64,000 nucleotides of DNA, from contig JBFWVE010000003.1 of the NCBI GenBank assembly GCA_050246895.1, positions 391,240 to 455,239 of the forward strand. The letters are read 5' to 3'. Positions 6,487 through 38,616 of this stretch are shown here, one piece after another. The notes beneath the pieces are model-generated. The model saw nothing but the letters and a program-made list of their open reading frames with translations, was not told the DNA's origin and made no database searches. How positions within the stretch are numbered: the stretch's first letter is position 1; each line of letters begins with the position of its first letter. The position numbers and the translations under genes are program-made. The stretch is from Vicinamibacteria bacterium (GTDB taxonomy: Bacteria; Acidobacteriota; Vicinamibacteria; Fen-336).

Positions 6487-8046
<1,560 letters not shown>

Positions 8047-11073: not shown

Positions 11074-14000
11074 CACCCCTCCCCCCTCCGCCGCCGAGCG
11101 GCAGCTCGCGCGCGGCGTCGGTGACGGCGTGGATCTTCGCGGCGTGCCCGCTCTGGGCCTCGACCTCGGCGTCGTCCACGAAGCGCACGTCGAGCAGCTC
11201 CGCCACGCGCTGGCCCGTGCGCAGGAAGTTGGCCTCCGCCAGCGCCTGGCTCCAGCCGTACAGCCAAGCGTCGAGGGCCGCGCGCTGCTCGGGGCTGCCC
11301 GAGAAGTGCACCAGCAGGTCGAGGTCGCTCGCGGGCCGCGCGCTGCCGCCGAGCGCGCTGCCGTAGACGTAGACCGCGCGCACGCCGAAGCGCGGGGCGT
11401 CCAGCGAGGCGGCCAGCCGCTCGGCCATGCCGAGTCGCCAGCGCGAGTGGTCGCCGGCCGGCAGCGCCGGAGCGGAGAAGCCGGACACCGCTTCGCCCGA
11501 GGCGTCCGCGGAGACCAGGTAGCCGAGCGCCTCGTCCTGCTCCGCGTTCATGGCTACCCGCAGCAGCTGGCCCTCGGTCGCCCGCGGGATCTCGATCACG
11601 CGCACGACGGGGGCGAGCGCCGCGTGTTCGGGCAGCAGCTCGGCGAGCAGGTTGGGAGCGCCCCGGAAGAACTCCTCGCGGAAGGCGACGCCAGGGTCGT
11701 CGGGATACAGCGGCAGGTAGCGGATCTGCGACTCGACGAGGTCCTGGAAGAAGTGGGTGCCGAAAGAGAGATCAGGCACGTAGTGGCCTCGCTTGCGCGC
11801 GACCTCCACCAATAGCGCGGCGTTCGAGATGTCCGCGTAGGTCACGCCGACGCCGAGCCGGACGTCGCCGCGGCTGCCCCAGCGCCCGGGGCCCAGCAGC
11901 GCGAAACGCCGCTTCGGCAACAGCGCGTTCAGCCGGCCGACCGCGCGGCCGACGCTGCGCAGGTCCTGCAGCGAGGCAATGCCCGCGTAGCCGTCGGGAT
12001 CCACGTAGACGACGTGGCTGAGGTCGGGCAGCCGGCCGTTCGACACGTGCCGGTGCGCCGAGAACAGCACGCGCTCGGCCGGGAGGCCGCGCGGGATCGG
12101 GGCGGGCGCCGCATCGGCCGAGCGGCTCTGCGGCCGGCATTGCACCAGGTAGAGGTCGCGCCCGTCGTGCGCGAACTCGAGATCCACCGGCGTGGCGAGC
12201 GACTCGCGCAGCGCGTCGAGCAGCGCGCGCATGCCAGCCACGAAGGGGCTGCGCGAGACGAGCCCCTCGAAGTCGAAGACGAGCTCCGGGCCCTTGCCGT
12301 CGAGGTCGAGCCAGCCGGCGGGGCGGATGCGCTCGCTCTCGAACACGGAGACGAGCTCCGCGAGCAGCGGGTACGCGGTGCCCACCTCGCGCAGCAGCGC
12401 GGCCACCGGGAGCGTCTCGAAGCCGCCGCCCTCGAGATCGATCACGTCCACCATTCGCGGTGCATAGCGGCGAATGTCCTCGGCCGAGACGTTGACGCGC
12501 AGCCCCGGCTGGCCCGGTGCTACCAGCATCGGGTAGTCGTCCGCCAGCCGGTCGACGGCGCGCGTGCCGAGGCCCGGCACCAGGCGCAGCAGCCCGTCCT
12601 CCCGCCGGATGCGCGGTGACCAGCGCAGCTCGTTGTGGCTGAAGGCGACGCCCGAGAAAGCCGGCAGGAAGTAGCGGCCGACGCGGGTGCCGACCACCTC
12701 CTGGATCATCACGGCCATCTCCTCGTGGTGCTCGAGGAGCCCCCGCTCGCTGCGGTACTGGATGGGGTCGGGGCTGAACGTCGAGGCGTACACCTCGGCG
12801 ATCGCGTCGAGCAGCGCCGCGAGGCGCTCGCGCTTGTCGCCCCGGTTGGCCAGGAACAGGCTCTTGTACTTGCCCGAGAAGGCGGAGCCCGCCCGGTCCT
12901 CGAGCAGGCTCGAGCTGCGCACGATCAGCGGCCGGTCGCCGAGGTCGTCGAGGTCGTCGAGCGCGCGCGCGACGCCGTGCTCGATCTCGGGCGGGAAGCG
13001 CGAGTTCTTGAACAACTGCAGGACGTGCGGGTACTCCTGTCGGATCTGATCGACCTGCCGGTATTTCCAGGTGTAGACCTCGTCGAGATCGTTGTAGGCC
13101 ACGAAGTGCAGGATGCCGTCCGACGGTAGGTACCAGGTGCGCGGGAAGCGCACCTCCGCGTGCACGCCGGCGAGCTCGGGCGAGCGGCGCAGCACCTGGC
13201 GCGCCAGGAAGAGGCCGCTCGCCTTGCCGCCCAGGCGGCCGTGGCTGCGCGGCAGCTGGATCGTGCGCGCGATCAGCTCGAAGAAGTCCTCGACCTCGGC
13301 GAAGCGGCGCACCGCGGCGATCGAGTCCTGCTGCTCGGTCAGCAGGCGGCGCGCGAGCGCGCTCACGAGCCCGACCTGCGTCGCCTGCGGCAGCTCGCGC
13401 GAGTGGACCCCGGTGCGCTGGAAGCGCTCGACGGAGTTGCCGATCTCGACCAGCGAGGTGTAGGGCGTCTCGAGCGCCTGCACGAGGAACTCGACCCGGT
13501 CCTCGCGGATCCAGGCCTGCACCATCGAGAGGATCTCGGCCTCCGGCAGGTGGGTCGCGGCGATGTGGAAGGTGCGCTCGAGACTGGCCTCGTCCTGTGG
13601 CACCGCTCGCGCCAGCGGGCGGTTCTCGTCCTCGGGAGGGCTGCTGGCAGGCGGCTTCGGCGCCAGGCTCGCGAGCAGCTCGCGCGCCTCGGGGGCGCCC
13701 ATCCACGCCAGGTGGTTGAGCAGCCGCCGCGCGATGCGCCGGTAGAGGTTGCGGTCGGTGTTGCGGAGCAGGCCGAGGATCACCTCGACGTTCTCGCCGC
13801 GCCGCGCCGGCGCTTGCGGCGGCGCCAGCGGGCGCGCTTCGCGCCGCGCCAAGTGGTCCGACAGCCGCGCCGCGATGGTGTCGATCAGCCGGCGCTCCTC
13901 TTTCAGGAAGGGCCCCTCGTCGGCCGGCGGGAACCCGTGGACGTAGGTCGCCGTCACCACGCCGGCACGCCGGCCGGCCAGCACGATCGGCGCCGAAAGC

Positions 14001-14257
14001 TCCCACGGCGTCTCGACGAACTCGGGCGAGGTCCAGCTGCGCCCGCCCAGCGTGATGCGAGCCTGGCATGCGCCCGGGTGCTGCCAGCCCGGGGGAATGG
14101 CCTCCAGCACGCCCTGCAGCACCTCCTCGAGGGGGCGCTCCGGGTCGCGCAAGTGCTCCTCGACGCGATAGAGGCAGCTCAGCTCCTTGGCGCGCTCCTG
14201 CAGCGCCCACAGCACGCGGTCGAGCGGCTGGCCGCTGTCGTCCTGCGCGCTCGTCAT
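11051..14257 (-). CDS. Multidomain protein: N-terminal sensor-like (GAF/PAS-like) domain, PPDK_N-type ATP-grasp domain, conserved C-terminal domain (GPGRWGSRGDVRLGVGV...LSFGTHFFQDL), and a C-terminal pol-beta-superfamily minimal nucleotidyltransferase. The start is the ATG of MTSAQDD..., which overlaps the stop of the upstream gene as ATGA.
   Basis: PPDK_N motifs RLGGKASGLFLARQVL, LIVRSSSLLED, EMAVMIQEVVG. Nucleotidyltransferase motif VYVYGSALGGSARPASDLDLLVHF (GS-x9-DxD). The 5' 1.4 kb of the listed 1537-aa ORF overlaps the next gene in another frame and is RG-rich, so I treat it as spurious. Confidence 0.75.
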   Translation of the reverse strand: MTSAQDDSGQPLDRVLWALQERAKELSCLYRVEEHLRDPERPLEEVLQGVLEAIPPGWQHPGACQARITLGGRSWTSPEFVETPWELSAPIVLAGRRAGVVTATYVHGFPPADEGPFLKEERRLIDTIAARLSDHLARREARPLAPPQAPARRGENVEVILGLLRNTDRNLYRRIARRLLNHLAWMGAPEARELLASLAPKPPASSPPEDENRPLARAVPQDEASLERTFHIAATHLPEAEILSMVQAWIREDRVEFLVQALETPYTSLVEIGNSVERFQRTGVHSRELPQATQVGLVSALARRLLTEQQDSIAAVRRFAEVEDFFELIARTIQLPRSHGRLGGKASGLFLARQVLRRSPELAGVHAEVRFPRTWYLPSDGILHFVAYNDLDEVYTWKYRQVDQIRQEYPHVLQLFKNSRFPPEIEHGVARALDDLDDLGDRPLIVRSSSLLEDRAGSAFSGKYKSLFLANRGDKRERLAALLDAIAEVYASTFSPDPIQYRSERGLLEHHEEMAVMIQEVVGTRVGRYFLPAFSGVAFSHNELRWSPRIRREDGLLRLVPGLGTRAVDRLADDYPMLVAPGQPGLRVNVSAEDIRRYAPRMVDVIDLEGGGFETLPVAALLREVGTAYPLLAELVSVFESERIRPAGWLDLDGKGPELVFDFEGLVSRSPFVAGMRALLDALRESLATPVDLEFAHDGRDLYLVQCRPQSRSADAAPAPIPRGLPAERVLFSAHRHVSNGRLPDLSHVVYVDPDGYAGIASLQDLRSVGRAVGRLNALLPKRRFALLGPGRWGSRGDVRLGVGVTYADISNAALLVEVARKRGHYVPDLSFGTHFFQDLVESQIRYLPLYPDDPGVAFREEFFRGAPNLLAELLPEHAALAPVVRVIEIPRATEGQLLRVAMNAEQDEALGYLVSADASGEAVSGFSAPALPAGDHSRWRLGMAERLAASLDAPRFGVRAVYVYGSALGGSARPASDLDLLVHFSGSPEQRAALDAWLYGWSQALAEANFLRTGQRVAELLDVRFVDDAEVEAQSGHAAKIHAVTDAARELPLGGGGGRGVRGGGAA

Positions 14258-15981
14258 GGGGCCCCCCTCAGGATCAGGCCGCGACCGCTGCGGGCGTCGA
14301 CGCGCACCTCGAAGGCCCGATCGGCGCGCCCGTGGACCACGTGCTCGGTCTCGGCCTGTCGCGGGAGCGCCTCGAGCCAATCCCAGTCGACGCGCGAGCC
14401 GCCGCGCCGCGTGACGCTCAGATAGGCGACGCCGAAGCTCAGCAGGTTGTGGAAGAAGTGCGAGCCCTGGCTCGGCTCCACCTCCAGATCCGGCAGCCCG
14501 GCCTCGACGATCACGCGCGCCGAGGCGACGTCGCCCCAGGCGACCGGGATGCCCAGCCAGGGGTCGGCCGAGCCCCAGCGTCCGAACCCGATCAGCACGC
14601 AGGCGCGCCCAGCGGCCAGCAGGCCCGCGTTCAGCCGCTCGATCTCGCTCGCGACCTCGCGCATCTTCGCACGCTCGAAGCCCTGGCGCTTCACGAACAG
14701 CACGTCGCGCAGGTCCGGGTAGCGGCCGTGGCCGACGGCGCCGGTCGCCGCCACCACCGCGCGCGGGTCGCCGAGGTCCTGCTCGCCGACCGGCTCGGGT
14801 TCGGCGCCGGTTCCCATCGGGCGCACCTGCAGGAAGCCGAGCCGCGCGCGCTCGGGCTCGATGGTGAGCGCGAGCTCGATCTCGACCGGCGCGCCCGCCC
14901 GAGCCTCGAACAGGCGCAGCAGGCCGTCCACGGCCTCGTGCAGCGGGAAGTCGGGGAACTCGCGCAGGGGCGCGAAATCGACGACCGGGCTGCCGCCGCG
15001 GCCGAGGCCGGGCGTCAGCCGGCCGGAGGCCGGGTCGTAGCTCGAGGCCACGGCCCCGAGCGTACCGTCGTCGGCCGCCAGCGTCAGGGGGCACTCGAGC
15101 AGGTACTCGGTCTCGGCCATCGGGTCCCAGTCCACCGGCTCGCCCATGTTGACCGCCCAGAAGCTGCGCTGCGCCGCGTCGAGGCGCTCGGCCGGCGTCG
15201 CGTAGGGCGGCACGGCGCGCGGATAGCGCGGGCAGTAGGTCCAGCAGCGGCCGCCGTCGACGATCGTCTTGCCGAGACCGAGCGCAAGGCTCGCCACCCC
15301 GTCCTCGGGTCGCGCGGGGCCGATCGGGTAGAAGCCGAGCGAGCGCGCGACCAGCGAGACGTCGGGATAGAAACGCGAGCCGTGCCGGCGGCCGACGACC
15401 TCCTGGACTACCACCGCCATCTTCTCGTCCGGCACGCCGCTGCCGAGCGCCGCCCGATACGCGCGGGCGGCTCGGAAGAACGTGGACGCGTAGACGAACT
15501 TGACCGCCTCGATCAACTTGCGAAAGCGCGTCTCGGCGCTCGACTGGTCGTTCGGCGTCAGCTTCGTCTCGTAGACGCCGGCGAAAGGGTGCGCCAGCGC
15601 GTCCTCGAGCCGGCTCGAGGAGCGGACCGCGAGAGGACGCGTGACGCCCGCCACCAGGGCCCACAGATCGCCCACGACCTCGGGCGGCAGCTCGGCCCGC
15701 TGGAACAGGAGCGCGATGCGGTGGTCCGGCAGCTCCGCCAGCTCAGCCTCGAGCAGGCCGCTGCGCTGCACGAACGAGTCGAAGACGTCGGTGCCGATCA
15801 CGGTGAGCGTCGGCACGTCGACCCCGAGCCGGCCGAGGCGCCTCGCCTCGCCGAAGCCCGCCAGCGCGCCGCGCGCCGCCTGCAGGCCTGCCGCCTTCCC
15901 GCCCACCTCCCCGGTCCCGATCGCGCTCAGAGGCTCGCCGGACCCGAAGAAGCGGCGCGGGAAGCGCGGCAGCGCGCTCAC
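14254..15981 (-). CDS. Stand-alone PPDK_N-type ATP-grasp protein with the same conserved C-terminal domain (paralog of the two preceding proteins). The likely GTG start overlaps the gdh stop as GTGA.
   Basis: Motifs GGKAAGLQAARGAL, LAVRSSSRLED, KMAVVVQEVVG, IGFGRWGSADPWLGIPVAWGDV, PSQGSHFFHNL. There is no ATG in frame; a GTG sits at 15981 immediately after the upstream stop. The rest of the listed 913-aa ORF overlaps gdh in another frame and is spurious. Confidence 0.7.
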   Translation of the reverse strand: MSALPRFPRRFFGSGEPLSAIGTGEVGGKAAGLQAARGALAGFGEARRLGRLGVDVPTLTVIGTDVFDSFVQRSGLLEAELAELPDHRIALLFQRAELPPEVVGDLWALVAGVTRPLAVRSSSRLEDALAHPFAGVYETKLTPNDQSSAETRFRKLIEAVKFVYASTFFRAARAYRAALGSGVPDEKMAVVVQEVVGRRHGSRFYPDVSLVARSLGFYPIGPARPEDGVASLALGLGKTIVDGGRCWTYCPRYPRAVPPYATPAERLDAAQRSFWAVNMGEPVDWDPMAETEYLLECPLTLAADDGTLGAVASSYDPASGRLTPGLGRGGSPVVDFAPLREFPDFPLHEAVDGLLRLFEARAGAPVEIELALTIEPERARLGFLQVRPMGTGAEPEPVGEQDLGDPRAVVAATGAVGHGRYPDLRDVLFVKRQGFERAKMREVASEIERLNAGLLAAGRACVLIGFGRWGSADPWLGIPVAWGDVASARVIVEAGLPDLEVEPSQGSHFFHNLLSFGVAYLSVTRRGGSRVDWDWLEALPRQAETEHVVHGRADRAFEVRVDARSGRGLILRGAP

Positions 15982-17258
15982 ACCCAGCCGCGCTCCCGGC
16001 AGGCCTGCGCCACCCGGCTGATCGCGATCACGTAGGCAGCGTCGCGCATCGGCAGCTTGCGCCGATCCGCCAGCTCGTGGACGGCGTGGAACGCCGAGGT
16101 CATCTTCACGTCGAGCTTGGCCAGGACCTCGTCCTTCTCCCAATAGTAGTTCGTGTTGCTCTGGACCTGCTCGAAGTAGCTGCAGGTCACACCACCGGCG
16201 TTGGCCAGGAAGTCGGGGATCACGTAGATCCCGCGCTGGCGCAGCACGGCGTCGCCGTCCGTGGTGGTCGGGCCGTTGGCGCCCTCGGCGATGATCTTCA
16301 CGCTGCCCGCGATGCGGCGGGCGCTCTCGCCGTCGATCTGGTTCTCGAGCGCCGCGGGGACCAGGATCTCGACCGGCTCCGCCAGCCAGGCGTCGCCGGG
16401 CAGCACCTCGTAGCCCAGCTCGCGCGCCTTCTCCTTGTCGATGCCGCCGAAGCGGTCGGCGATCCCGACCAGCGCGTCGGCGTCGACGCCGTCCTGCTTG
16501 CGGAACGAGTAGGCGCGCTGGTCCTGCTGGTCCCAGCAGGAGACGCAGGAGACCTTGCCGCCGATCCGCTGGAACAACCGGATCGCGTACTGCGCGACGT
16601 TGCCGAAGCCCTGCACGCTGGCCCGCGCGCCCTCGGGCTTGAGGTCCAGCTCGCGAAGCGCCTCGCGCAGGGCGAAGACGACGCCGTAGCCCGTGGCCTC
16701 GGTGCGCCCGAGCGAGCCGCCCATGCCGACCGGCTTGCCGGTGATGAAGCCCGGGAAGTGCCCGCCGCGGATGTGCTCGTACTCGTCGAGCATCCACAGC
16801 ATGTGCTGGGCGTTCGTCATCACGTCGGGCGCTGGCACGTCCGCCACCGGGCCCACGTTGCGGGCGATCTGGCGAACCCAGCCGCGGCACAGCTGCTCCT
16901 GCTCGCGCGGGCTCAGGTTGTGCGGGTCGCAGATGATGCCGCCCTTGGCGCCTCCGAGCGGAATGTCCACCACGGCGCACTTCCAGGTCATCCACATCGC
17001 CAGCGCGCGCACGGTGTCGAGCGTCTCCTGCGGATGGAAGCGGATGCCCCCCTTGCTCGGTCCGCGCGCATCGGAGTGCTGCACCCGGAAGCCGCGAAAC
17101 ACGTGCACGTTGCCGCCGTCCATGCGCACCGGTATCGCGAACGAGTACTCACGCAGGGGCCAGCGCAGCAACTCTCGCGACGCGGGGTCGAGCCCGAGCA
17201 GCTCCGCGACGTGGTCGAACTGGGCCTGGGCGATCTCGAACGAGTTGTAGGACTTCAT
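15978..17258 (-). CDS. gdh: Glutamate dehydrogenase, Bacillus/archaeal ~425-aa type (Glu/Leu/Phe/Val dehydrogenase family). The start is taken at MKSYNSFEIAQAQF.
   Basis: Motifs PLGGAKGGIICDPHNLS, GVTCSYFEQVQ and GFGNVAQYA. The upstream 37-aa extension in the ORF track is Arg-rich and unlikely. Confidence 0.85.
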   Translation of the reverse strand: MKSYNSFEIAQAQFDHVAELLGLDPASRELLRWPLREYSFAIPVRMDGGNVHVFRGFRVQHSDARGPSKGGIRFHPQETLDTVRALAMWMTWKCAVVDIPLGGAKGGIICDPHNLSPREQEQLCRGWVRQIARNVGPVADVPAPDVMTNAQHMLWMLDEYEHIRGGHFPGFITGKPVGMGGSLGRTEATGYGVVFALREALRELDLKPEGARASVQGFGNVAQYAIRLFQRIGGKVSCVSCWDQQDQRAYSFRKQDGVDADALVGIADRFGGIDKEKARELGYEVLPGDAWLAEPVEILVPAALENQIDGESARRIAGSVKIIAEGANGPTTTDGDAVLRQRGIYVIPDFLANAGGVTCSYFEQVQSNTNYYWEKDEVLAKLDVKMTSAFHAVHELADRRKLPMRDAAYVIAISRVAQACRERGWV

Positions 17259-17354
17259 GGTCGTGTGGCTCCTTCGTGGCGACGCGCGGCGGCGCCCGCT
17301 CGCGATCCGTCTCAGGGGCGCCTGGGCGCCGGAGCGCCTCCCGTGGCGGCTCCA

Positions 17355-17407
17355 TGCTAGGACTAGCAAGGCTGGTGCCTTGGCCGCCTGAGCCCGATGG
17401 CTCAGGC
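17355..17407. promoter_or_regulatory. Divergent gdh/uspA regulatory region containing a palindrome TGCTAG-ga-CTAGCA (17355-17368) and a 9-bp-arm hairpin GCCTGAGCC-cgat-GGCTCAGGC (17386-17407).
   Basis: The inverted repeats were read directly. They sit about 50-100 bp upstream of the uspA ATG (which has an AGGAGG Shine-Dalgarno) and about 100-150 bp upstream of the gdh start on the other strand. Confidence 0.35.
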
Positions 17408-17458
17408 CGGGCCTGCCGGCGCGCGCTTTGCAGCGACCGGGGCCAGAGGAGGTGGCGC

Positions 17459-17920
17459 ATGATCGTCCTGAAGCGCATCCTCGTCCCCACGGACTTCTCG
17501 GAGCCTTCCGAGCGCGCGCTCGACTACGCCCGGGCGCTGGCGCCCGCCCTGGGCTGCTCGCTGGACGTCCTCCACGTGATCGAAGAGCCTTTCGTCCACG
17601 GCTGGACCGTCGAGGGCTACGTGGCCAACCTCCCCGAGTTTCGCCGCTCTCTCGAGGCCCGAGCGCGCGAGGAGCTGGCGAAGGCGGTTCCCGAGGCCGG
17701 CGAGGAGCACTCGCGCTACTGCGTTGCCGTCCGCTTCGGCAATCCCTTCACCGAGATCGCCCGCTACGCCGAGGAGGCGCGCATCGATCTCGTGGTGATG
17801 GGCACCCATGGCCGCGGCGGCGTCGCGCATCTGCTGCTCGGCAGCGTCGCCGAGCGCGTGGTGCGCACGGCGCCCTGCCCGGTGCTGACGGTGCGCGCGC
17901 CTCGCCCGGTGAAGCCGTGA
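17459..17920 (+). CDS. uspA: Universal stress protein (UspA family)
   Basis: MIVLKRILVPTDFSEPSERALDYA...DLVVMGTHGRGGVAHLLLGSVAERVVRTAPCPVLTV. There is an AGGAGG 7 nt upstream of the ATG. Confidence 0.85.
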   Translation: MIVLKRILVPTDFSEPSERALDYARALAPALGCSLDVLHVIEEPFVHGWTVEGYVANLPEFRRSLEARAREELAKAVPEAGEEHSRYCVAVRFGNPFTEIARYAEEARIDLVVMGTHGRGGVAHLLLGSVAERVVRTAPCPVLTVRAPRPVKP

Positions 17921-17943: not shown

Positions 17944-18402
17944 ATGGCCGGGGCCCGGGCCGAGCTGGCGCAGGCCGTCTCCGAGCGGCTGGGCTCGAGC
18001 GACACGCCCCACTACCGCGCGCTCACGAGCGACGAGCTGCGCTCCCGCGTCGCGCAACTGGTGGAGGCCTTCGTCGGGGGCTTCACGGACCCGGAGGCGC
18101 TCGGGCTGCACGTGCGCCAGCTCGCCGACGAACGCCAGCACGAAGGCTTCCGCCTGGAAGAGCTGCAGGTCGCGCTGAGCGCCCTGGAAGAGTGCGCCTG
18201 GCGCGTCGCCGAGCGCGCGGTCACCGACGTCGCGGTCCTGGTCCCGCGCCTGGCCGCCGTCAGCGGCAGCCTGGGCCGTGCCAAGGACGAGCTGGCCCGC
18301 GCCTTCCTCGACCGCTCCCTCGCCGCCGAACGCCACGCCAAAGCCCTCGAGCTCCGCCTCGCCGACCTGTTCAAGGGCACGGAAGAAGCGCCGATCGATT
18401 GA
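17944..18402 (+). CDS. Hypothetical alpha-helical protein (~150 aa) directly following uspA. A GTG start near 17912 is also possible.
   Basis: Its composition is non-RG-rich and protein-like (…LEELQVALSALEECAWRVAERAV…), and it is co-directional and contiguous with uspA. I recognised no domain. Confidence 0.4.
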   Translation: MAGARAELAQAVSERLGSSDTPHYRALTSDELRSRVAQLVEAFVGGFTDPEALGLHVRQLADERQHEGFRLEELQVALSALEECAWRVAERAVTDVAVLVPRLAAVSGSLGRAKDELARAFLDRSLAAERHAKALELRLADLFKGTEEAPID

Positions 18403-18662: not shown

Positions 18663-19391
18663 CTAGTGCCCGTGGCTGTGCGCGTGCGCGTGCACGTCCT
18701 TGGCTTGAGCGGCACGCTTCGCCTCGAGCCAGGCGACGAACGCGTCGATGCCGGCGCCGGTCGTCGCCGAGACGTGCAGCGCCTCGAAGCACGGCATCAC
18801 CCGGCGCAGCGAGTCCTCGTAGGCGGCGAGCGAGATGCCCGGCAGGTGCGGCAGCAGGTCGATCTTCGTCAGCAGCACGAGGTCGGCCCCATGGAACATC
18901 GCGGGGTACTTGAGGGGCTTGTCGACGCCCTCGGTCATCGACAGCGCGACCACGTTGGCCGCCTGGCCCAGGTCGTACACCGCCGGGCAGACCAGGTTGC
19001 CGACGTTCTCGACGAACAGCAGGTCCAGCGAGCGCGAGTCGAAGCGGTGCAGCGCCTCGTGCACCATGTCGGCGTCGAGATGGCAGGCGGAGCCGGTGGT
19101 GATCGCCAGCGAGGGCACGCCGGCGGCGCGCAGGCGGTCCGCGTCGTTCTCGGTCGCGAGGTCGCCGGCCAGCGCTCCCAGCCGGCGGCGGCCGGCGAGG
19201 CGCCGAGCGACCGCCTCCAGCACGGCCGTCTTGCCGGATCCCGGCGAGCCCATCAGGTTGACGGCCAGCACGCCCTGCTCGCGGAAGTGCGCGCGGTTGT
19301 GCGCGGCCTGGCGATCGTTGGCGGCCAGCACGCGCTCCTGCACCTCGACGGGCACGATCTTCGTGTCGCCGCAGCCGCACGTATCGCACAT
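18663..19391 (-). CDS. hypB: Hydrogenase nickel incorporation GTPase HypB. The start is the internal Met MCDTCGCGD, whose ATG overlaps the hypA stop.
   Basis: N-terminal CxxCGC metal site, P-loop GSPGSGKT, and a C-terminal His-rich tail HAHAHSHGH. Confidence 0.9.
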   Translation of the reverse strand: MCDTCGCGDTKIVPVEVQERVLAANDRQAAHNRAHFREQGVLAVNLMGSPGSGKTAVLEAVARRLAGRRRLGALAGDLATENDADRLRAAGVPSLAITTGSACHLDADMVHEALHRFDSRSLDLLFVENVGNLVCPAVYDLGQAANVVALSMTEGVDKPLKYPAMFHGADLVLLTKIDLLPHLPGISLAAYEDSLRRVMPCFEALHVSATTGAGIDAFVAWLEAKRAAQAKDVHAHAHSHGH

Positions 19392-19732
19392 CACGCCACC
19401 TCCAGCTCCAGACGCTCCAGCAGGATCTCGTCGCCCGACACGAGCCGGGCCGCCTCGCCGCAGGCCGGGCAGCGCAGCGGCCCGCCCGTCGCGATCTCGG
19501 CGCCGCAGGCGCGGCAGGCCCAGCGAGCCTTCACGCTGACGACGCGCAGCTCGGCGTTCTCGCACACCGTCTTCGCGCGGAACAGGTCGTAGGCCGTCTT
19601 CAGCAGGCCGACCTCGACGCCCGACAGCTCGCCGATGCGCAGCTCGAGCGCGTGCACGGCGCTCGCCTGGTGCTTGCGCGCCTGTTGCTCCACCTGCGTC
19701 ACCAGTGCCTGGACGATCGAGTACTCGTGCAC
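19391..19732 (-). CDS. hypA: Hydrogenase nickel insertion protein HypA
   Basis: MHEYSIVQALV… and a C-terminal zinc site CRACG…CPACG. Confidence 0.9.
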   Translation of the reverse strand: MHEYSIVQALVTQVEQQARKHQASAVHALELRIGELSGVEVGLLKTAYDLFRAKTVCENAELRVVSVKARWACRACGAEIATGGPLRCPACGEAARLVSGDEILLERLELEVA

Positions 19733-19739
19733 GGGCGCC

Positions 19740-20573
19740 TCAGCGCCCGCCGAAGCGGGGCGGCCGCTTCTCGAAGAAGGCGGCGATGCCCTCGGCGCAG
19801 TCCGGCGTGTCGGCGATGCGGGCGAGCTCCTCCAGCTCGCGGTCGAGGTGGACGTCGAGCCGGTCGCTGGCCGAGGCGGCGTGCAGCAGCGCCTTGGTGA
19901 CGGCGTAGGAGCGCGTCGGTCCGGCGGCGAGCGTCGCGGCCACGCGCCGCACCTCGGCCTCGAAGGCGTGCTCGGGGATCACCTCGCTGACGAGACCCAT
20001 CCGCCAGGCGCGCGCGGCGTCGAGCCGCGGGTTCAGGAACGCGAGATCGAAGGCGCGGCGCAGGCCGACGAGCCGCGGCAGGAAGAAGGTCGAGCTTTCG
20101 GCGCCGGTCAGCGCCGTCTTGGGATAGGCCCACTCGAAGCTCGCGCGCGAGGACGCGAGCACCAGGTCGCAGGCCATCGCCAGGCCGAAGCCGCCCGCGG
20201 CCGCGACGCCGTCGACCGCCGCCAGCACCGGCTTCGGCGCGCGCTTCAGCTCGGAGATCGTGGAGTGCAGGTACTCCAGGATCTGCTTGAAGCGCTCCCC
20301 GTAGCCGGCGGGGATCTCGCGCGAAGCGGGCTGCAGGTAGCCGAGGTCGGCGCTCTCGCCGCCCGAGCGGATGTACTTGAGGTCGGCGCCGCTGCAGAAG
20401 ACGCCGTTCGTGCCCTGCAGCACCACGCAGCGCACGCTCTCGTCGCGGCAGAGCGCGAGTCCGGCCTGGCGCAGGTCCTGGGCGGTGGCGACGTCGAGCG
20501 AGTTGAAGCGCTCGGGCCGGGCGATCGTCAGCCAGCCGACGCCGTCCTCGCGCGAGACGCGGATGTGGCGCAT
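19740..20573 (-). CDS. Enoyl-CoA hydratase/isomerase (crotonase-fold) protein embedded in the hyp operon. Its ATG overlaps the hypE stop.
   Basis: Crotonase oxyanion-hole motifs VVLQGTNGVFCSGADL and AAVDGVAAAGGFGLAMACD. It is 277 aa and starts at MRHIRVSREDG. The 5' 1.5 kb of the listed 767-aa ORF is a spurious out-of-frame overlap of hypE and hypD. Confidence 0.8.
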   Translation of the reverse strand: MRHIRVSREDGVGWLTIARPERFNSLDVATAQDLRQAGLALCRDESVRCVVLQGTNGVFCSGADLKYIRSGGESADLGYLQPASREIPAGYGERFKQILEYLHSTISELKRAPKPVLAAVDGVAAAGGFGLAMACDLVLASSRASFEWAYPKTALTGAESSTFFLPRLVGLRRAFDLAFLNPRLDAARAWRMGLVSEVIPEHAFEAEVRRVAATLAAGPTRSYAVTKALLHAASASDRLDVHLDRELEELARIADTPDCAEGIAAFFEKRPPRFGGR

Positions 20574-21616
20574 CAGCAGATCCTCGGCAGAGGCTCGCCT
20601 TCGATCTCGACCAGCAGCCGCCGCCCGAAGCCGGTGTCGAGCACGACCTGCCCCACCCGCTCGGCCACGCACTCGCCGACGATCGCGGCGTGCTGCCCCT
20701 GCGGCTGGCCGCGCAGCGCCGCCAGCACGGCGCCGGCCACGTGCGGCCGCACGCCGAGGAGCGCCTTGCCCTCGTTGGCGATCACGAGCGGATCGATGCC
20801 GAGCAACTCGGACGCCGCCCGCACCGCGGGCGTCACGGGCACGCTCGGCTCGTCGAGCACGATGCCGACGCCGCTCTTCTCGGCCATCTCGTGGAGCGCG
20901 CTCGCGAGCCCGCCGCGCGTGGGGTCCTTCAGCGTCACGACGCCGTCGCCGCCGGCGCGCAGCGCGGCCCTCACCAGCGCGTTGATCGGCGCCACGTCGG
21001 AGCGCAGGTCGCCGGAGAGCTCGAGCTTGTGGCGCGCCGCCATCACCGCGCAGCCGTGGTCGCCGACGCTGCCGCTGACGATCAGGCGGTCGCCGGGCCG
21101 CAGGCCGCTGTCGCGCACGACGCGGGCGGCCATGCCGATGCCCGTGGTGTTGAGCATCACGCCGTCGAGCTGCCCCCGGCCCATCACCTTGGTGTCGCCG
21201 GTGACGATCGTGGTGCCCGCCTCGCGACAGGCCTCGACCATCGAGGCGTGGATCCGTTCGAGGTCGGCGCGCGAGAAGCCCTCCTCCACCACCACGGCGC
21301 AGGTCAGCGCCAGCGGCTCGGTGGCGCCCATCATCGCGAGGTCGTTGACGGTGCCCGAGACCGCCAGCCGCCCGATGTCGCCGCCCGCGAAGAAGGCCGG
21401 CGAGACCACGTGCGAGTCCGTGGTGATCACCAGGAAGCCGTCGCCCAGCGGCAGCGCGGCGCCGTCGTCCATCGCGTCGAGACCGTAGAGTCCGGCGGGC
21501 CCCTCGGGGAAGCCGCCCGTCAGGACCTCGCGCACGAGCTGGCGCATGGCGCGCCCGCCCGCGCCGTGCTTCAGCAGGACCTTGTCCTCGAGCAGCGCCA
21601 GCCGCAGCGTCGTCAT
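20573..21616 (-). CDS. hypE: Hydrogenase maturation factor HypE (carbamoyl dehydratase). The start is taken at MTTLRLALLEDK.
   Basis: AIR-synthase-like fold and the conserved C-terminal ...PRIC. Confidence 0.9.
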   Translation of the reverse strand: MTTLRLALLEDKVLLKHGAGGRAMRQLVREVLTGGFPEGPAGLYGLDAMDDGAALPLGDGFLVITTDSHVVSPAFFAGGDIGRLAVSGTVNDLAMMGATEPLALTCAVVVEEGFSRADLERIHASMVEACREAGTTIVTGDTKVMGRGQLDGVMLNTTGIGMAARVVRDSGLRPGDRLIVSGSVGDHGCAVMAARHKLELSGDLRSDVAPINALVRAALRAGGDGVVTLKDPTRGGLASALHEMAEKSGVGIVLDEPSVPVTPAVRAASELLGIDPLVIANEGKALLGVRPHVAGAVLAALRGQPQGQHAAIVGECVAERVGQVVLDTGFGRRLLVEIEGEPLPRIC

Positions 21617-22773
21617 CGGCCTGCCTCCGCGAGCGAACCCGCCGCCAGATCGGGGTGGCCTCCGTAGAGGTGCCAGATCTTGCAGGTGCCCTCGCTCGAC
21701 ACCATGCAGGCGCCGACCGGCGTCTCGGGCAGGCACTCGCGCCCGAACAGCTTGCACTGCGGGGGCGAGGCGATCCCCGCCATGATGTCGCCGCAGATGC
21801 AGTCCTGCACCAGCGCCGGCGGCGCGTACTGCCACAGCGACTCGAGGTCGATCTCGAAGCGGCGGCGGGCGTCGAGCGGCGCCCACTCGTCGCGCAAGCG
21901 CAGGTTCCCGTTCGGCACGTGCGCGATGCCGCGCCAGCGGCCGCCGGCCGGGCGGAAGACGTGGAACAGCTGCTCGAGCGCGTTGCGGTTGCCCTCGCGG
22001 CTGACGCAGCGCGGGAACATGTTGACGACCTGCGGCCGGCCATCGCGCACGAGCTCGACGAGGCGCAGCAGGGCCGCCAGGATGTCGAGCGGCTCGAAGC
22101 CCGCGACCACCACCGGCAGGCGGTGGCGCAGGGCGAAGCCCTCGAAGATGCCCCAGCCCGTGATGGCGGCGGCGTGGCCGGCGGCCAGGAAGCCCTCGAC
22201 GCGCGACCCGGGCATCTCCGCCACGATCTCCATCACGGGCGGGATGTACTTGTGGGCCGAGAGCACCGAGAAGTTCGGCGGCACGCCGGCGAGCACGGCC
22301 GCCGCGGTCGCGACCGCCGTGGTCTCGAAGCCGGTCGCGAAGAAGACGACCTCGTCGCGCGAGCCGCGCGCCAGCTCGACCGCCTGGTTCACGCTGTAGA
22401 CGACCTCGACGCGCGCGCCTTCGGCCTGGACGTCGCCGAGCGACAGCACGCTGCCGGGGACCTTCAGCATGTCGCCGTAGGTGGCGATCGTCAGGCCCTG
22501 GCGCGCGAGCGCCACGCCCTCGTCCACCTCGGGCACGTCGGTGATGCAGACCGGGCAGCCGGGCCCCATGATCACGTCGAGCGACTTCGGGAAGGACGCG
22601 CGCAGGCCGTAGCGCGCGATCGCCTGCTCGTGGCTGCCGCAGACGTGCATCAGCGAGACGCGGCGGCCGAGCGCGTCGGCGGCCCCGCGCAGCGCGTCCG
22701 CCAGCGCGCGGGCCTGCTTCGGATCGCGGAACTTCATTTCCGCGGCGCCGGCGGGCAGCGACTCAGGCTTCAC
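21613..22773 (-). CDS. hypD: Hydrogenase maturation factor HypD. An alternative start at MKFRDP (22737) is possible.
   Basis: Motifs CGSHE, GPGCPVC and FETTA, with a C-terminal cysteine cluster CxxxC…C. Confidence 0.9.
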   Translation of the reverse strand: MKPESLPAGAAEMKFRDPKQARALADALRGAADALGRRVSLMHVCGSHEQAIARYGLRASFPKSLDVIMGPGCPVCITDVPEVDEGVALARQGLTIATYGDMLKVPGSVLSLGDVQAEGARVEVVYSVNQAVELARGSRDEVVFFATGFETTAVATAAAVLAGVPPNFSVLSAHKYIPPVMEIVAEMPGSRVEGFLAAGHAAAITGWGIFEGFALRHRLPVVVAGFEPLDILAALLRLVELVRDGRPQVVNMFPRCVSREGNRNALEQLFHVFRPAGGRWRGIAHVPNGNLRLRDEWAPLDARRRFEIDLESLWQYAPPALVQDCICGDIMAGIASPPQCKLFGRECLPETPVGACMVSSEGTCKIWHLYGGHPDLAAGSLAEAGR

Positions 22774-23053
22774 GGGGCTTCTCCCCCGCCTCGATCTCGC
22801 CGCGCACGTCGGCGGCCATCAGGTCGCCCTCGGCACCCTCCCCGAGCAGCGACTCGTAGAGGTCGAGCGTGCCCTGGATGTCCTCGGGCGGGATGCGCCG
22901 GATCGCGAAGCCGACATGGTTGAGCACGTAGTCGCCGGGCTGCACCGGCTGGTCGACGAGGTCGAGCCGGACGGCCCGCCGCACGCCCCAGAAGTCCACG
23001 GTGGCGACGATCCCGTCGACCGACACCACCCGTCCCGGCACACCCAGGCACAT
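22763..23053 (-). CDS. hypC: Hydrogenase maturation factor HypC
   Basis: The N-terminal MCLGVPGRVV motif is diagnostic; the protein is 96 aa. Confidence 0.85.
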   Translation of the reverse strand: MCLGVPGRVVSVDGIVATVDFWGVRRAVRLDLVDQPVQPGDYVLNHVGFAIRRIPPEDIQGTLDLYESLLGEGAEGDLMAADVRGEIEAGEKPREA

Positions 23054-23072: not shown

Positions 23073-25358
23073 CTAGAGCGATTTCCGTGCCACGGCGTCC
23101 GCCACGACCGCCTGGCCGAGGGCGATCCCGCCGTCGCCCGGCGGCGCCTGGCGGTGGCGCAGCACCACGAAGTCCGATCCCAGGGCCGCGACCACCTGCT
23201 CGACGAGCAGCGGGTTCTGGAAGCAGCCGCCCGACAGGCCCACGGCGAGCCGTCCCACGCGCTCCGCCACCAGCCGCACGGCCTCGGCGGTCGCGGCCGC
23301 GAGCGTCCGGTGGAAGCGGGCCGAGACGACGCCTGCGCCCCGACACGCGACGAGATCGTCGACCGCCTGCCGCACGGCGGGCCGCAGGTCGATCTCACAG
23401 GGCGTCGCTTGCACGTCGAGCCGGTAGTCGTAGCGCTGCGTCTCGCACGGATCGGCCGCGAGGTTCCAGAGCAGCGCGATCTGGCCCTCGTGCGCGGAGC
23501 GCGCCCGGCCGAGGCCCAGCGCGCCGAACGCGTCGAAGTAGCGGCCGACGCCGCGCGCGCGCGGGCAGTTGAGCCCCTGGGCCTGCATCTGCCGCACCAC
23601 CGCGATCTCCGCGGGCGGAACGCTGGCGAAGAGGGGCAGGCGCCCGAGGGGGGGATCGCCGGCGTAGGCGTCGTCGAGCAGCGCCAGCGCCGTCCGCCAG
23701 ACCTCGCGGATGGCGCGCTCGCCGCCGGGCAGCGCGAGGCTGCGGAAGCTCGCGACCCGCTCGTAGCCCTCGAGCGTCGCGAGCAGGATCTCTCCGCCCC
23801 AGAGCGTGCCGTCGGTGCCGAAGCCGGTTCCGTCGTAGGCGACCCCCAGGATCGGCCCCGGCAGCCCGTGCTCGGCGAGCAGCGAGGCCACGTGCGCGTG
23901 GTGGTGCTGGACGCCGATCTTGACGGGCTCCGGCCGCTCGAGCGCATAGCGGGTCGAGAGGTAGCCGGGGTGCAGGTCGTAAGCGACCAGCTCCGGCCGC
24001 ACGCGCAGGAAGCGGAGCTGGCGCTCGATCGCGGCGCGGTAGGCGTCCTCGGTCGCGAGGTTCTCGAGGTCCCCGACGTGGGGACCGAGTTGGGCCTCGT
24101 CGCCGCTGCCGACGCAGAAGGTGTTCTTCAGGTGCGCGCCGCAGGCGAGCACGGGCCGCGCGAAGCGGCGCTCGAACGGGAGCGCCCGCGGCACGTGGCC
24201 GCGCGCGCGGCGCAGCAGCGTCGGCACGCCTGCGATCACGCGCGCCACCGAGTCGTCGCAGGGAGCCTCGATCTCGCGGTCGTGGACCAGCAGCAGGTCG
24301 GCGATGCCGCCGAGCCGCGCGAGCGCCTCGTCGTTGCGCCAGGCGAGCGGCTCCTCCGAGAGGTTGCCCGAGGTCATCACCAGCGGGGCGCCCACCTCGT
24401 CGAGCAGCAGGTGGTGCAGCGGGGCGTAGGCGAGCAGCAGGCCGACGAGCGGGTTGTCCGGGGCCACCGCCCGCGCCAGCGGGCTCGGGACCCGGCGGCG
24501 CGCCAGCACGATCGGCCGCTCGACCGAAACCAGCAGCTGGCGCTCCGCGTCCGAGAGCACGGCCAGGGCCTCGGCTTGCGGCAGCTCCGCGACCATCACC
24601 GCGAAGGGCTTCTCGTCGCGCCGCTTGCGCTCGCGCAGCCTGCTCACCGCCGCCTCGGAGCGCGCGTCGCAGGCGAGATGGAACCCGCCGATGCCCTTGA
24701 GCGCGACGATGCTCCCGCCCGCGAGGGCGCGCGCGGCGGCGCGGATCTCGTCCTCCACCTCGATCCGCGTCCCGGCGGGCGAGACGAGCGCGAGGCGCGG
24801 GCCGCAGGCCGGGCAGGCGATCGGCTGCGCGTGGAAGCGGCGATCCGCCACCGACTCGTACTCGGCACGGCACTCCGCGCACATCTCGAAGCCGGCCATG
24901 GTCGTGGCGGCACGGTCGTACGGGACGTCGCGCGCGATCGTGAAGCGCGGACCGCAGCGCGTGCAGTTCGTGAAGGCATAGCGATGGCGGCGCGCCTTCG
25001 GGTCGCGGATCTCGGCGAGACATTCGGGACAGGTCGCCAGATCGGCCGGGATCGACACGCGGCGGGCCGCGGCGGCCGCGCTGCCGTCGATCGAGAAGCC
25101 GGACGGAGCCGGTGCCGCGATCTCCTGGCAGACGAGCGCGCGTATCTGGGCGGCAGCGGGCGCCTCGGCGCGCAGCCGCTCGAGGAAAACCTCGAGCGCC
25201 CCCCGCGGTGCGAACGCCTCGATCGTCACGCCGGCGGCGTCGTTGTAGACGCGGCCGGCGATTCCGCTTTCGCGCGCGAGCCGGTAGACGAAGGGACGGA
25301 ACCCCACGCCCTGCACGACGCCACGGATCGAGATGCGCCGCCCCGCGGGGGGCGCCAC
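23073..25358 (-). CDS. hypF: Carbamoyltransferase HypF. The start is probably a GTG just upstream of the acylphosphatase motif RISIRGVVQGVGFRPFVYRLA; the listed ORF start at 25547 would add an atypical ~63-aa extension.
   Basis: Acylphosphatase domain, two Zn-finger-like CxxC pairs, a YrdC-like domain (…GIGGFHLACDA…), and a Kae1-like carbamoyltransferase domain. The exact start is uncertain. Confidence 0.85.
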   Translation of the reverse strand: MAPPAGRRISIRGVVQGVGFRPFVYRLARESGIAGRVYNDAAGVTIEAFAPRGALEVFLERLRAEAPAAAQIRALVCQEIAAPAPSGFSIDGSAAAAARRVSIPADLATCPECLAEIRDPKARRHRYAFTNCTRCGPRFTIARDVPYDRAATTMAGFEMCAECRAEYESVADRRFHAQPIACPACGPRLALVSPAGTRIEVEDEIRAAARALAGGSIVALKGIGGFHLACDARSEAAVSRLRERKRRDEKPFAVMVAELPQAEALAVLSDAERQLLVSVERPIVLARRRVPSPLARAVAPDNPLVGLLLAYAPLHHLLLDEVGAPLVMTSGNLSEEPLAWRNDEALARLGGIADLLLVHDREIEAPCDDSVARVIAGVPTLLRRARGHVPRALPFERRFARPVLACGAHLKNTFCVGSGDEAQLGPHVGDLENLATEDAYRAAIERQLRFLRVRPELVAYDLHPGYLSTRYALERPEPVKIGVQHHHAHVASLLAEHGLPGPILGVAYDGTGFGTDGTLWGGEILLATLEGYERVASFRSLALPGGERAIREVWRTALALLDDAYAGDPPLGRLPLFASVPPAEIAVVRQMQAQGLNCPRARGVGRYFDAFGALGLGRARSAHEGQIALLWNLAADPCETQRYDYRLDVQATPCEIDLRPAVRQAVDDLVACRGAGVVSARFHRTLAAATAEAVRLVAERVGRLAVGLSGGCFQNPLLVEQVVAALGSDFVVLRHRQAPPGDGGIALGQAVVADAVARKSL

Positions 25359-25789: not shown

Positions 25790-26203
25790 CTAGCCCAGGA
25801 CGAGCTCCGCGCCCTCGATGCGGACGGGGAGCTGCCGCAGGGGCCGCGGAGGAGGACCTTGGAGCACGCGGCCGTTTGCGTCGAAGCGGCCGTCGTGGCA
25901 CGGGCACTGGTAGCGGCCCTCCGCCTCGCGCCACGCCACCGCGCAACCGAAGTGCGAGCACGACAGCAGCAAAGCGCGCGGCCGACCGTCGGCGGAACGC
26001 AGCAGCTCGACGGGCTCGCCGTCCCAGGTCACCACCAGCCTGCGCCCTGGCGGGAGCTCGCGCAGCGGCACGCGCACGACCCGCGGGCCGGGCGCCGCCC
26101 GCCGGCCCCGCGCGCAGGAGGGGCCGAGCGCGGCGGCCGCGAGCGCCGAGGCCCCGGCGAGGCCGATGCGCCGGAGCGCCGCGCGGCGCGGCGTCAGGCG
26201 CAC
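25790..26203 (-). CDS. Small Rieske [2Fe-2S] protein with a probable Tat signal peptide (…TPRRAALRRIGLAGASALAAAALG…). There is no ATG in frame, so a GTG/other start is inferred.
   Basis: Rieske boxes CSHFGC and CPCHDG. It is in frame with the 3' end of the listed 387-aa ORF, whose 5' part overlaps the protease gene and is spurious. Confidence 0.6.
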   Translation of the reverse strand: MRLTPRRAALRRIGLAGASALAAAALGPSCARGRRAAPGPRVVRVPLRELPPGRRLVVTWDGEPVELLRSADGRPRALLLSCSHFGCAVAWREAEGRYQCPCHDGRFDANGRVLQGPPPRPLRQLPVRIEGAELVLG

Positions 26204-26736
26204 GGCGGCCGCTCCCACCAGATGTGCGGGCGCGCGGGCGCCGGGCAGGGCGTGGGCAGCGCACCCAGCCGCTTCAGCTCCGCCAGCACCTCCGCCACCA
26301 CCCGCGGCACCGCCGCGCGCACGCGCTCGGAGAGCCCGGCGCGCGTCGCGACGCTCTCCGGGACGACGCCGATCAGCAGCACGTCCTTCGGCCCGCGCCC
26401 GAGCGTCTGGGCGAGCAGCAGCGACTCGGCCAGCGCCGGATCGTGAGGCGTCAGGCGCGGGCCCGGCTTCATCCGCATCAGCGCGTCGCGCCGCCAGCAG
26501 CGCACGTCGCCCGGCTGGCCGTCGCTCTTCACGCTGTCGACCAGGATCAGCGCCTCGCGGTCGAGCACGAAGGGCGCCAGGTCGAGCCCTGGCGTGCCCA
26601 GGTCCTGAACCGCGACCCGGCGCGGAAAGGCGTATTCGGCGCGCAGCGTCTCGATCACGTAGGGACCGAGCGCGTCGTCGCCCATCAGCACGTTGCCGAG
26701 CCCCAGCACTGCGATCGGCGCTTCCGGCGCGTCCAT
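26194..26736 (-). CDS. hybD: [NiFe] hydrogenase maturation endopeptidase (HyaD/HybD/HoxM family)
   Basis: N-terminus IAVLGLGNVLMGDDALG, which is typical of these proteases. Confidence 0.85.
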   Translation of the reverse strand: MDAPEAPIAVLGLGNVLMGDDALGPYVIETLRAEYAFPRRVAVQDLGTPGLDLAPFVLDREALILVDSVKSDGQPGDVRCWRRDALMRMKPGPRLTPHDPALAESLLLAQTLGRGPKDVLLIGVVPESVATRAGLSERVRAAVPRVVAEVLAELKRLGALPTPCPAPARPHIWWERPPCA

Positions 26737-26757
26737 TCGCCCTCCTCGGCGCCCCCC

Positions 26758-28296: not shown

Positions 28297-28300
28297 CGAG

Positions 28301-28667
28301 CTAGCCTGCCAGCCATCCTCCGGGCTCCCCCCGGACGAGCCGTGCATGCACGCCCCAGGCCAGCGCCAGCATGGCGGCGTCGACCAGCCCGGAGACGGGG
28401 ACCACCCAGGGCACGCCGCCGATCGCCGTCGTCACGCCCAGGAACCCGACCGCGATCGCCTTCGTCGCCAGCATCACGCGCACGCCGCGGTAGCGGAAGT
28501 ACTCGATGAGGTAGGCGCTCGCGACGACCAGGTGGAAGGCGCCGGCCTGCCGCGCGAAGAAGGGCGGCTGCAGCGTCCCGAAGCCGCCCAGGGCGGCCCC
28601 CCACTCGGTCAGGAAGAGCAGGCAGAGCCCGACGCCTAGGCTGTGGGCGGCGACCAGGACGACGAAG
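28301..28667 (-). CDS. Possible small hydrophobic membrane protein between the hydrogenase large-subunit gene and the SDR gene. There is no canonical start codon close to the upstream stop.
   Basis: The in-frame 3' end of the listed 663-aa ORF (…FFARQAGAFHLVVASAYLIEYFRY…MLATKAIAVGFLG…) looks membrane-protein-like. The rest of that ORF is antisense or out of frame to the large subunit. Confidence 0.3.

Positions 28668-34974: not shown

Positions 34975-38616
<3,642 letters not shown>

Follow-up and report, generated by a model that had tools for sequence, protein, structure and literature searches.

Why should the gene for a free-standing crotonase lie inside an operon that matures a [NiFe]-hydrogenase? 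This question is raised by a 64-kb stretch of a Vicinamibacteria genome (GenBank assembly GCA_050246895.1, contig JBFWVE010000003.1, positions 391,240 to 455,239; ~73% GC), here called the window, in which a 277-residue crotonase-fold protein is encoded between the maturation genes hypE and hypA. The only maturation enzyme with which it invites comparison is HypX (HoxX; C. necator, Rhizobium leguminosarum, Aquifex aeolicus; PDB 6J0P), an N10-formyl-tetrahydrofolate (N10-formyl-THF) decarbonylase that synthesizes the CO ligand aerobically. Where the carbonyl ligand originates in metabolism has been singled out as the most urgent unsolved problem of [NiFe]-cofactor biosynthesis; free formyl-coenzyme A (formyl-CoA) has been speculated to be its precursor, candidate cellular sources have been listed, and the question of the source has been posed for the HypX-independent pathway (Sawers 2025 review, PMC12134894). 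Our analysis indicates that the crotonase is very probably a hydrogenase-maturation factor. By analogy with HypX, we further think it on balance probable that it is a stand-alone counterpart of the HypX C-terminal domain, acting as a formyl-CoA decarbonylase and so providing the CO of the Fe(CN)2CO group in [NiFe]-hydrogenase.

A crotonase gene within the hyp operon

The crotonase gene is read on the minus strand from an ATG at 20573-20571 to a TGA at 19742-19740. The hypE stop codon (TGA, 20575-20573) and this ATG have one base in common, with the minus strand reading CTGCTGATGCGC (TGATG), and a spacer of 7 nt separates the crotonase stop from the GTG of hypA at 19732. An earlier note on this DNA, made from the sequence alone, had described a 277-residue crotonase-fold gene that overlaps the hypE stop and is followed 7 bp later by hypA; all of this held, and the strand, which the note had left unstated, is minus. 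The hypD and hypE genes likewise share an ATGA, and every junction in the hypF-C-D-E-crotonase-A-B run is an overlap or a short spacer. The run hypFCDE-crotonase-hypAB is a coupled operon downstream of a Hyb-type [NiFe]-hydrogenase, and its genes are as follows.

18663-19391, minus strand: hypB (cobW/HypB GTPase), whose ATG at 19391 overlaps the hypA stop (TGATG)
19391-19732, minus strand: hypA, 113 residues, GTG start; PF01155 at E=1.7e-29, aligned from residue 1
19740-20573, minus strand: stand-alone crotonase-fold gene, 277 residues plus stop; HypX-C-like, with the motif Y150...G157-A158-E159
20573-21616, minus strand: hypE, 347 residues, ATG at 21616; AIRS and AIRS_C domains
21613-22773, minus strand: hypD; PF01924, 1e-118
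22763-23053, minus strand: hypC, beginning MCLGVPG at 23053
23073-25358, minus strand: hypF; the start is approximate, as the signal of GC content at third codon positions (GC3) stops near 25350 and the GTG at 25358 is a candidate start

A GC3 frame plot marked 19726-20625 as coding in the crotonase frame. A 767-residue open frame that spans the crotonase open reading frame (ORF) was rejected as a high-GC artefact, its upstream part being filled by hypE in another frame. Pfam ECH_1 covered residues 9-276 (E=1.2e-45, 156 bits against a cut-off of 27), and ECH_1/ECH_2 were the only Pfam domains in the protein, in keeping with the earlier note's view that the crotonase module stands alone and lacks an N-terminal formyltransferase domain. 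An AlphaFold2 model (predicted local distance difference test score, pLDDT, 78; predicted template modelling score 0.79) adopted the crotonase fold, with TM-scores against crotonase structures of up to 0.81/0.90. The two oxyanion-hole segments, F59-C-S-G-A-D-L and A124-A-A-G-G-F-G, were invariant in all 81 family members compared. The protein is a member of the crotonase superfamily by profile score, by fold and by its oxyanion-hole segments.

We then asked how far this arrangement extends. With each GTDB species represented by one genome, a scan recovered at least 553 genomes that encode a relative, and the locus counts given here refer to the best 80 of these, all metagenome-assembled genomes (MAGs), whose crotonases share 62-81% identity; loci were annotated with profiles of the window's own Hyp proteins. 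The crotonase was hyp-embedded in 76 of 77 informative loci. Its start lay within 160 nt of the hypE stop in 56 of the 80, often at 12 nt or in overlap, and hypA followed it directly in 48. A formyltransferase gene stood between hypE and the crotonase in 15 loci and upstream at a contig edge in one more (16 together). Two loci had an insertion or gap at this junction: L017 carries an IS481 transposase there, and L071 a stretch of 624 nt. Two Chloroflexota loci (L047 and L057; Chloroflexota/Thermoflexus) had the order hypD-crotonase-hypE, and three lacked upstream sequence (L014, L054, L079), of which L054 still reads hypD fragment-crotonase-hypE. The single orphan (L024:9998-10828, a Rokubacteria MAG) had no hyp genes within the available flank.

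Some of these loci carried features of their own. The L017 insertion (L017:8208-9479) encodes an IS481-type transposase with rve and helix-turn-helix domains and lies on a complete Thermoanaerobaculia chromosome, OY970284.1. The neighbours of the L024 orphan are efflux (HlyD, OEP), universal stress protein (Usp), OsmC and sigma-70 genes. At L004/L007:7828-9990 (Rokubacteria MAG), a called gene of 720 residues fuses part of the large subunit to HypE and encloses a fragment of HypD, reflecting either a cluster deletion or a misassembly upstream of the crotonase.

The hydrogenases at related loci were of at least two types, one with the order small subunit-large subunit-cytochrome b and one Hyb-like, which argues that the crotonase goes with the Hyp machinery rather than with any single hydrogenase. 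Genuine hypX genes also follow hypE, as in C. necator pHG1, Bradyrhizobium, Rhizobium and Sulfurovum.

The family itself is sharply bounded. In a search of 5.8 billion proteins, all of the top 120 matches were 274-298 residues long and 68-98% identical to the window crotonase. A family profile run against a 50%-clustered library recovered essentially one full-length cluster (459 bits) plus fragments, below which scores fell to ~285 bits (P0221, P0222) and then to at most 219 bits for ordinary 260-residue crotonases. The best 80 loci came from Acidobacteriota (Vicinamibacteria, Thermoanaerobaculia), Gemmatimonadota, Myxococcota (Polyangiales, Anaeromyxobacteraceae), Methylomirabilota/Rokubacteria, Binatota and Chloroflexota, while a plasmid collection held no family member at E<=1e-40. 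Public records leave members without a name or call them generic enoyl-CoA hydratase or PaaG, the last in Joint Genome Institute (JGI) records, where many bear the name 2-(1,2-epoxy-1,2-dihydrophenyl)acetyl-CoA isomerase. Judged by sequence, these crotonases form one tight, widespread and so far unnamed family across about six phyla.

Sequence comparison with HypX and with PaaG-type crotonases

The catalytic residues provide the most direct link to HypX. BLASTP aligned crotonase residues 28-219 with residues 327-511 of C. necator HypX (31% identity over 200 residues, E=1e-9), and profile-to-sequence comparison with hhalign gave a probability of 96.6%. In the BLASTP alignment, HypX Tyr439 falls on Y150 and Glu449 on E159. 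These two residues (Tyr416 and Glu426 in A. aeolicus) are the candidate bases for formyl-CoA decarbonylation, they are conserved in all HypX proteins, and their mutation is reported to give a HypX-minus phenotype (Muraki 2019, PMC6802093). In the crotonase family, Y150 and E159 were invariant in 81 of 81 members, as were G157, A158 and T162.

This region was compared across three sets: 12 members of the family, 8 C-domains of HypX proteins spanning four phyla, and the nearest 105 generic crotonases. The HypX motif reads N-P-H-Y-K-x-M-G-(N)-L-Y-G-S-E-Y-W-T-Y-L-L-P, the family motif F-E-W-A-Y-x-K-T-x-L-T-G-A-E-S-S-T-F-F-L-P and the generic motif x-x-A-Y-x-x-x-G-L-x-P-D-G-G-S. HypX and the family thus have in common the crotonase fold and an aligned Tyr/Glu pair within Y-x(4-5)-L-x-G-[AS]-E-x-x-T-x-x-LP, and they also share the gene slot after hypE and a link to formyl-group enzymes. 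The Tyr+Glu pair occurred in only one of the 105 generic crotonases; the others carry a PaaG-type Pro-Asp (L-x-P-D-G-G) one residue earlier. Against a hidden Markov model (HMM) of the HypX C-domain, the family scored a median of 80.6 bits (60-94) versus 56.4 (maximum 75.9) for the generics. HypX was always monophyletic in neighbour-joining trees, 60 of 100 bootstraps contained a bipartition uniting it with the family, and the mean corrected distance to HypX was 2.03 for the family versus 2.67 for the generics. Although its raw scores are far higher against generic crotonases than against HypX, the family seems to be, among stand-alone proteins, the least-diverged relative that the HypX C-domain has.

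The family also resembles the PaaG/alternative oxepin-CoA hydrolase subgroup. Members of that subgroup (PDB 4FZW_C, 6SLA, 2EJ5) were the top sequence and fold matches of the crotonase, at 32-36% identity over the full length, and they too have Tyr or Phe at the Y150 position; HypX and the family alike find their best matches there. However, where PaaG has its catalytic Asp136 (P-D motif), the family has G157-A158, with the Glu one residue later, and it lacks the paa context of PaaG. All NCBIfam equivalogs were missed, with scores about half of the cut-offs (171 bits versus 300 for oxepin-CoA hydrolase, alternative type; 163 versus 345 for PaaG, TIGR02280); NCBIfam holds no HypX model. The positions that we take to be those of Glu144 and Glu164 in rat enoyl-CoA hydratase are Gly and Tyr150 in the window crotonase, and the nearest generic crotonases also lack both hydratase Glu residues. 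The window crotonase is not a housekeeping hydratase. The earlier note had seen two dangers for a HypX connection, namely placement with housekeeping hydratases and a hyp-embedded position that is not conserved. The alignment to HypX C-domains and canonical crotonases that it called for showed the HypX Tyr/Glu retained and the hydratase Glu missing, HypX-C profiles scored the family above the nearest generic crotonases, the neighbour-joining trees united it with HypX in 60 of 100 bootstraps, and the position proved conserved in all but one of the informative loci.

The family also differs from HypX in several respects. The window crotonase lacks a fused Formyl_trans_N/C domain and is ~30% identical to HypX-C. 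Its oxyanion motif is the canonical GADL, where HypX has G-I-H-L, and a family-specific insertion of ~17 residues (positions 70-90) and the pair E147-W148 have no HypX counterpart. HypX holds CoA as a swinging prosthetic group, tethered by R9, Q15, R131, S194, Q195, N306 and R542 in A. aeolicus. The usual formyltransferase partner of the family is PurN-like and unrelated to the HypX N-domain. The two also differ in range, with the family in Acidobacteriota, Gemmatimonadota, Myxococcota and related phyla and HypX in Proteobacteria, Actinomycetota, Aquificota and Cyanobacteria. Because the defining fusion is absent, the crotonase is not a member of HypX sensu stricto; nor is the family simply a cut-off half of HypX, since by raw sequence score it is nearer to PaaG-like crotonases and its usual partner is PurN-like. 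Short C-only HypX ORFs on long contigs (L099, L100) were considered as split HypX and rejected as frameshift fragments in long-read assemblies, because the neighbouring hypD and hypE are broken too. The stand-alone state of the crotonase family is no such artefact, because its junctions are tight and reproducible.

Formyltransferase partners and proposed function

If the crotonase resembles half of HypX, is the other half encoded elsewhere? No formyltransferase was found in the 64-kb window by tblastn with PurN-like, Fmt-like and HypX-N queries or with a family HMM. The best match (E=0.26, 18046-18162, minus strand) was spurious, arising from a low-complexity antisense frame of a plus-strand gene. 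No formyltransferase-crotonase fusions occurred among the top 150 family representatives; the long proteins in that set, checked as possible fusions, were double crotonases, SnoaL fusions or chimeras with no formyltransferase. At least 60 loci had no formyltransferase within 10 kb on either side of the crotonase. Altogether, a formyltransferase, whether fused or adjacent, is missing from the window and from ~70% of related loci, and ~20% of these loci have a dedicated PurN-like one.

The loci that do have a partner form a consistent group. L001, L005 and 14 other GTDB loci encode a Formyl_trans_N protein of 200-300 residues on the hypE side of the crotonase, usually with a 4-nt overlap. The separate formyltransferase gene that the earlier note suggested looking for is therefore missing from the window itself and present directly upstream of the crotonase in 16 of the 80 related loci. 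The two-gene pairs (L001, L005, L095-L098), with their 4-nt overlap, have the same crotonase family and the same slot after hypE as the window, and differ in carrying a formyl-CoA-forming enzyme, which the window lacks. The PurN-like partner family comprises ~78 clusters, has PurN rather than HypX as its next relatives, and matches HypX by BLASTP only at E=0.1 over the shared catalytic-Asp motif. Three of three further members that we looked up independently occupied the slot between hypE and the crotonase. In the divergent member P0222, hypE is followed by an Fmt-like formyltransferase and then the crotonase; this partner has both N and C formyltransferase domains and is 28% identical to the HypX N-domain (E=8e-13).

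In a crotonase tree, loci with and without a formyltransferase were interleaved inside Acidobacteriota and Gemmatimonadota, and among the best 80 no locus from Myxococcota, Binatota, Methylomirabilota or Chloroflexota had the enzyme. This partner varies between loci and is dispensable. Partnerless crotonases keep every catalytic residue, indicating selection on the crotonase without a cis-encoded partner.

Two neighbouring genes deserve mention here. At L096, which has both a PurN-like formyltransferase and the crotonase, a formate-tetrahydrofolate ligase (L096:1538-3205, minus strand; PF01268, 834 bits) is encoded divergently next to hypC, and this fits a dedicated supply of formyl-THF. A conserved membrane protein of ~216 residues with a His-rich loop, HGHSHHHYDHVHD, follows hypB at L005:11893-12543, L097:8493-9152 and ~22 other loci. 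It has no Pfam hit on record. We considered it as the missing partner and rejected it, as it is Ni-transporter-like, occurs with and without a formyltransferase, and is not in the window.

Taken by analogy with HypX, these data suggest a mechanism in which we infer the substrate, the release of CO, its hand-over to HypCD and the link to oxygen. The crotonase would bind formyl-CoA, and its oxyanion hole (backbone NH groups in FCSGADL and AAAGGFG) would polarize the formyl thioester. Tyr150 together with Glu159 as base, acting directly or through water, would then split formyl-CoA into CO and CoA-SH, and iron on HypC-HypD, the products of the same coupled operon, would capture the CO. In the ~20% of loci with a PurN-like formyltransferase, that enzyme would make formyl-CoA from N10-formyl-THF, and the Fmt-like one would do so in the divergent member. 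Where no formyltransferase is fused or adjacent, formyl-CoA would have to come as a free metabolite or from an unlinked enzyme. Because most of the HypX CoA-tethering residues are in the N-domain, the stand-alone enzyme should bind and release CoA as ordinary crotonases do and draw on free formyl-CoA. The earlier note's proposal of a split or minimal HypX-like CO-ligand factor gains support from the match to Tyr439/Glu449, the HypX-C profiles, the neighbour-joining trees, the synteny and the 16 upstream formyltransferases.

Several observations weigh against this assignment. Raw sequence scores favour other crotonases (5e-39 for PDB 2ej5 and 1e-34 for PaaG versus 1e-9 for HypX), and HypX was not among the top 60 PDB sequence matches or the top 50 Foldseek fold matches, which were generic crotonases only. 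HypX C-domains score higher against a generic-crotonase HMM than against the family HMM, and neighbour-joining support for the family with HypX is only 60%. Compared with proteobacterial HypX, the family has one residue fewer between Tyr and Glu, but actinobacterial and cyanobacterial HypX have the same spacing as the family. AlphaFold2 models the catalytic loop (152-158) poorly (pLDDT <50). Five of the seven HypX CoA-tethering residues lie in the N-domain and are absent from the window crotonase, and the 64-kb window contains no formate-THF ligase or obvious formyl-CoA enzyme. Finally, a Hyb-like hydrogenase (small subunit, HybA, HybB, large subunit), as found here, is not classically tied to aerobic maturation.

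These points leave room for other explanations. A formyltransferase encoded outside the 64 kb might dock in trans to form a two-component HypX that converts N10-formyl-THF to formyl-CoA and then to CO. The two-gene versions in 16 of the 80 loci and in L095-L098 lend themselves to this idea, and what is visible of the genome is 64 kb, but we consider it unlikely: all members of the PurN-like partner family that were located occupy the slot after hypE and before the crotonase, with none found elsewhere, that family has ~78 clusters against a crotonase in at least 553 species, the interleaving of loci looks like repeated loss of the formyltransferase with the crotonase retained, and neither the window nor the 10-kb flanks of at least 60 loci contain one. 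A maturation factor with other acyl-CoA chemistry, whether hydrolysis or isomerization of another thioester or delivery of a different C1 or C2 precursor, would accommodate the best profile matches (alternative-type oxepin-CoA hydrolase and PaaG) as well as the ~17-residue insertion and E147-W148 that HypX lacks. Yet the catalytic Asp of PaaG is Ala158 here, both hydratase Glu are missing, all NCBIfam scores fall far under their cut-offs (171 vs 300; 163 vs 345), and among the variable neighbours only enzymes of formyl-group metabolism recur (two formyltransferase types and formate-THF ligase), all of which makes such chemistry rather improbable.

We regard a non-catalytic role as very unlikely. 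As a scaffold or CoA-binding component of the Hyp apparatus, such as an adaptor on HypCD, the protein would echo HypX, which forms a complex with HypC and HypD (PMC6802093), and its coupling with hypE and hypA does suggest stoichiometric production. However, members keep both the oxyanion-hole motifs and the Tyr/Glu pair without exception (81/81), which speaks for catalysis. Least probable of all, at the level of a slim chance, is an ordinary fatty-acid or phenylacetate-pathway crotonase that entered the operon by chance, as the full-length ECH_1 match and the PaaG-type names from JGI would have it. Hyp synteny in 76 of 77 loci across about six phyla effectively refutes this, and the lack of paa or beta-oxidation genes nearby, the loss of both the hydratase and the PaaG catalytic residues and scores under all equivalog cut-offs point the same way.

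Neither a stand-alone nor a two-gene HypX-like system turned up in the searchable literature. Conserved in hyp operons, the family reaches at least 553 species-level genomes from abundant soil phyla, and its members appear to correspond to the decarbonylase half of HypX, with the formyl-CoA-making half missing. An active enzyme would mean that free formyl-CoA or another donor feeds CO-ligand synthesis in its carriers, and a 277-residue protein offers a simple handle on the question of the CO-ligand precursor. Were the stand-alone decarbonylase assignment true, HypX-type maturation would extend well past Proteobacteria, Actinomycetota and Aquificota, surveys of aerobic H2 oxidizers would gain a marker gene, and a systematic mis-annotation as PaaG or generic enoyl-CoA hydratase in public records would be corrected. 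More speculatively, many soil phyla might make the CO ligand with a one-domain enzyme that acts on free formyl-CoA, with the formyl-THF transferase an option that is gained, swapped (PurN-like, Fmt-like or, in HypX, fused) and repeatedly lost, formyl-CoA rather than formyl-THF the general committed precursor, and the family possibly ancestral to HypX by fusion; we hold this wider scheme less likely than not.

The hydrogenase cluster and the rest of the window

Upstream of the hyp genes lie a maturation protease and the hydrogenase genes.

~25790-26080, minus strand: small Rieske [2Fe-2S] domain ORF, between the HycI-type protease and hypF
26194-26757, minus strand: HycI/HybD-type maturation endopeptidase
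26758-28347, minus strand: ORF of 529 residues resembling short-chain dehydrogenases/reductases (SDR) and epimerases; NAD-dependent epimerase/SDR domain at residues 25-248 and a weak RsbRD_N match
28684-30381, minus strand: [NiFe]-hydrogenase large subunit; PF00374, 1.4e-223
30381-31586, minus strand: NrfD/HybB-like membrane subunit
31583-32518, minus strand: HybA-like 4Fe-4S ferredoxin subunit
32521-33672, minus strand: [NiFe]-hydrogenase small subunit; start ATG at 33672, preceded by AGGAGG

All are on the minus strand, and the order of transcription is Usp, small subunit, HybA-like, NrfD/HybB-like, large subunit, SDR, HycI-type protease, Rieske, hypFCDE-crotonase-hypAB. The slot of the Rieske ORF holds a c-type cytochrome in L005, and the C. 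necator cluster has a rubredoxin; the Rieske protein may be a variable small redox partner for maturation. The 529-residue SDR/epimerase ORF, between the large subunit and the protease, is missing from L006, the closest related locus.

Usp genes stand at both ends of the cluster (33742-34695, minus strand; 17276-17920, plus strand) and in L001 and L024, too, the crotonase has Usp genes nearby. Among the annotated window genes, none near the crotonase belongs to a paa or beta-oxidation pathway. Between 32734 and 38631, very long open frames overlap on both strands (1960 residues on plus, 1207 on minus); a Pfam scan of the minus-strand ORF at 35008-38631 gave no match. Elsewhere the window encodes a transhydrogenase, glutamate-type dehydrogenases, PPDK_N proteins, FeoB, cytochrome c assembly, a Ser/Thr kinase, FHA proteins and sigma-54 regulators. 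The two PPDK_N (PEP-utilizing, ATP-grasp) proteins are very large (8047-11073, plus strand; 11051-15664, minus strand), one with a response-regulator receiver domain and the other with a nucleotidyltransferase domain, and two Glu/Leu/Phe/Val dehydrogenase paralogues are encoded at 6487-8046 (plus strand) and 15978-17369 (minus strand).

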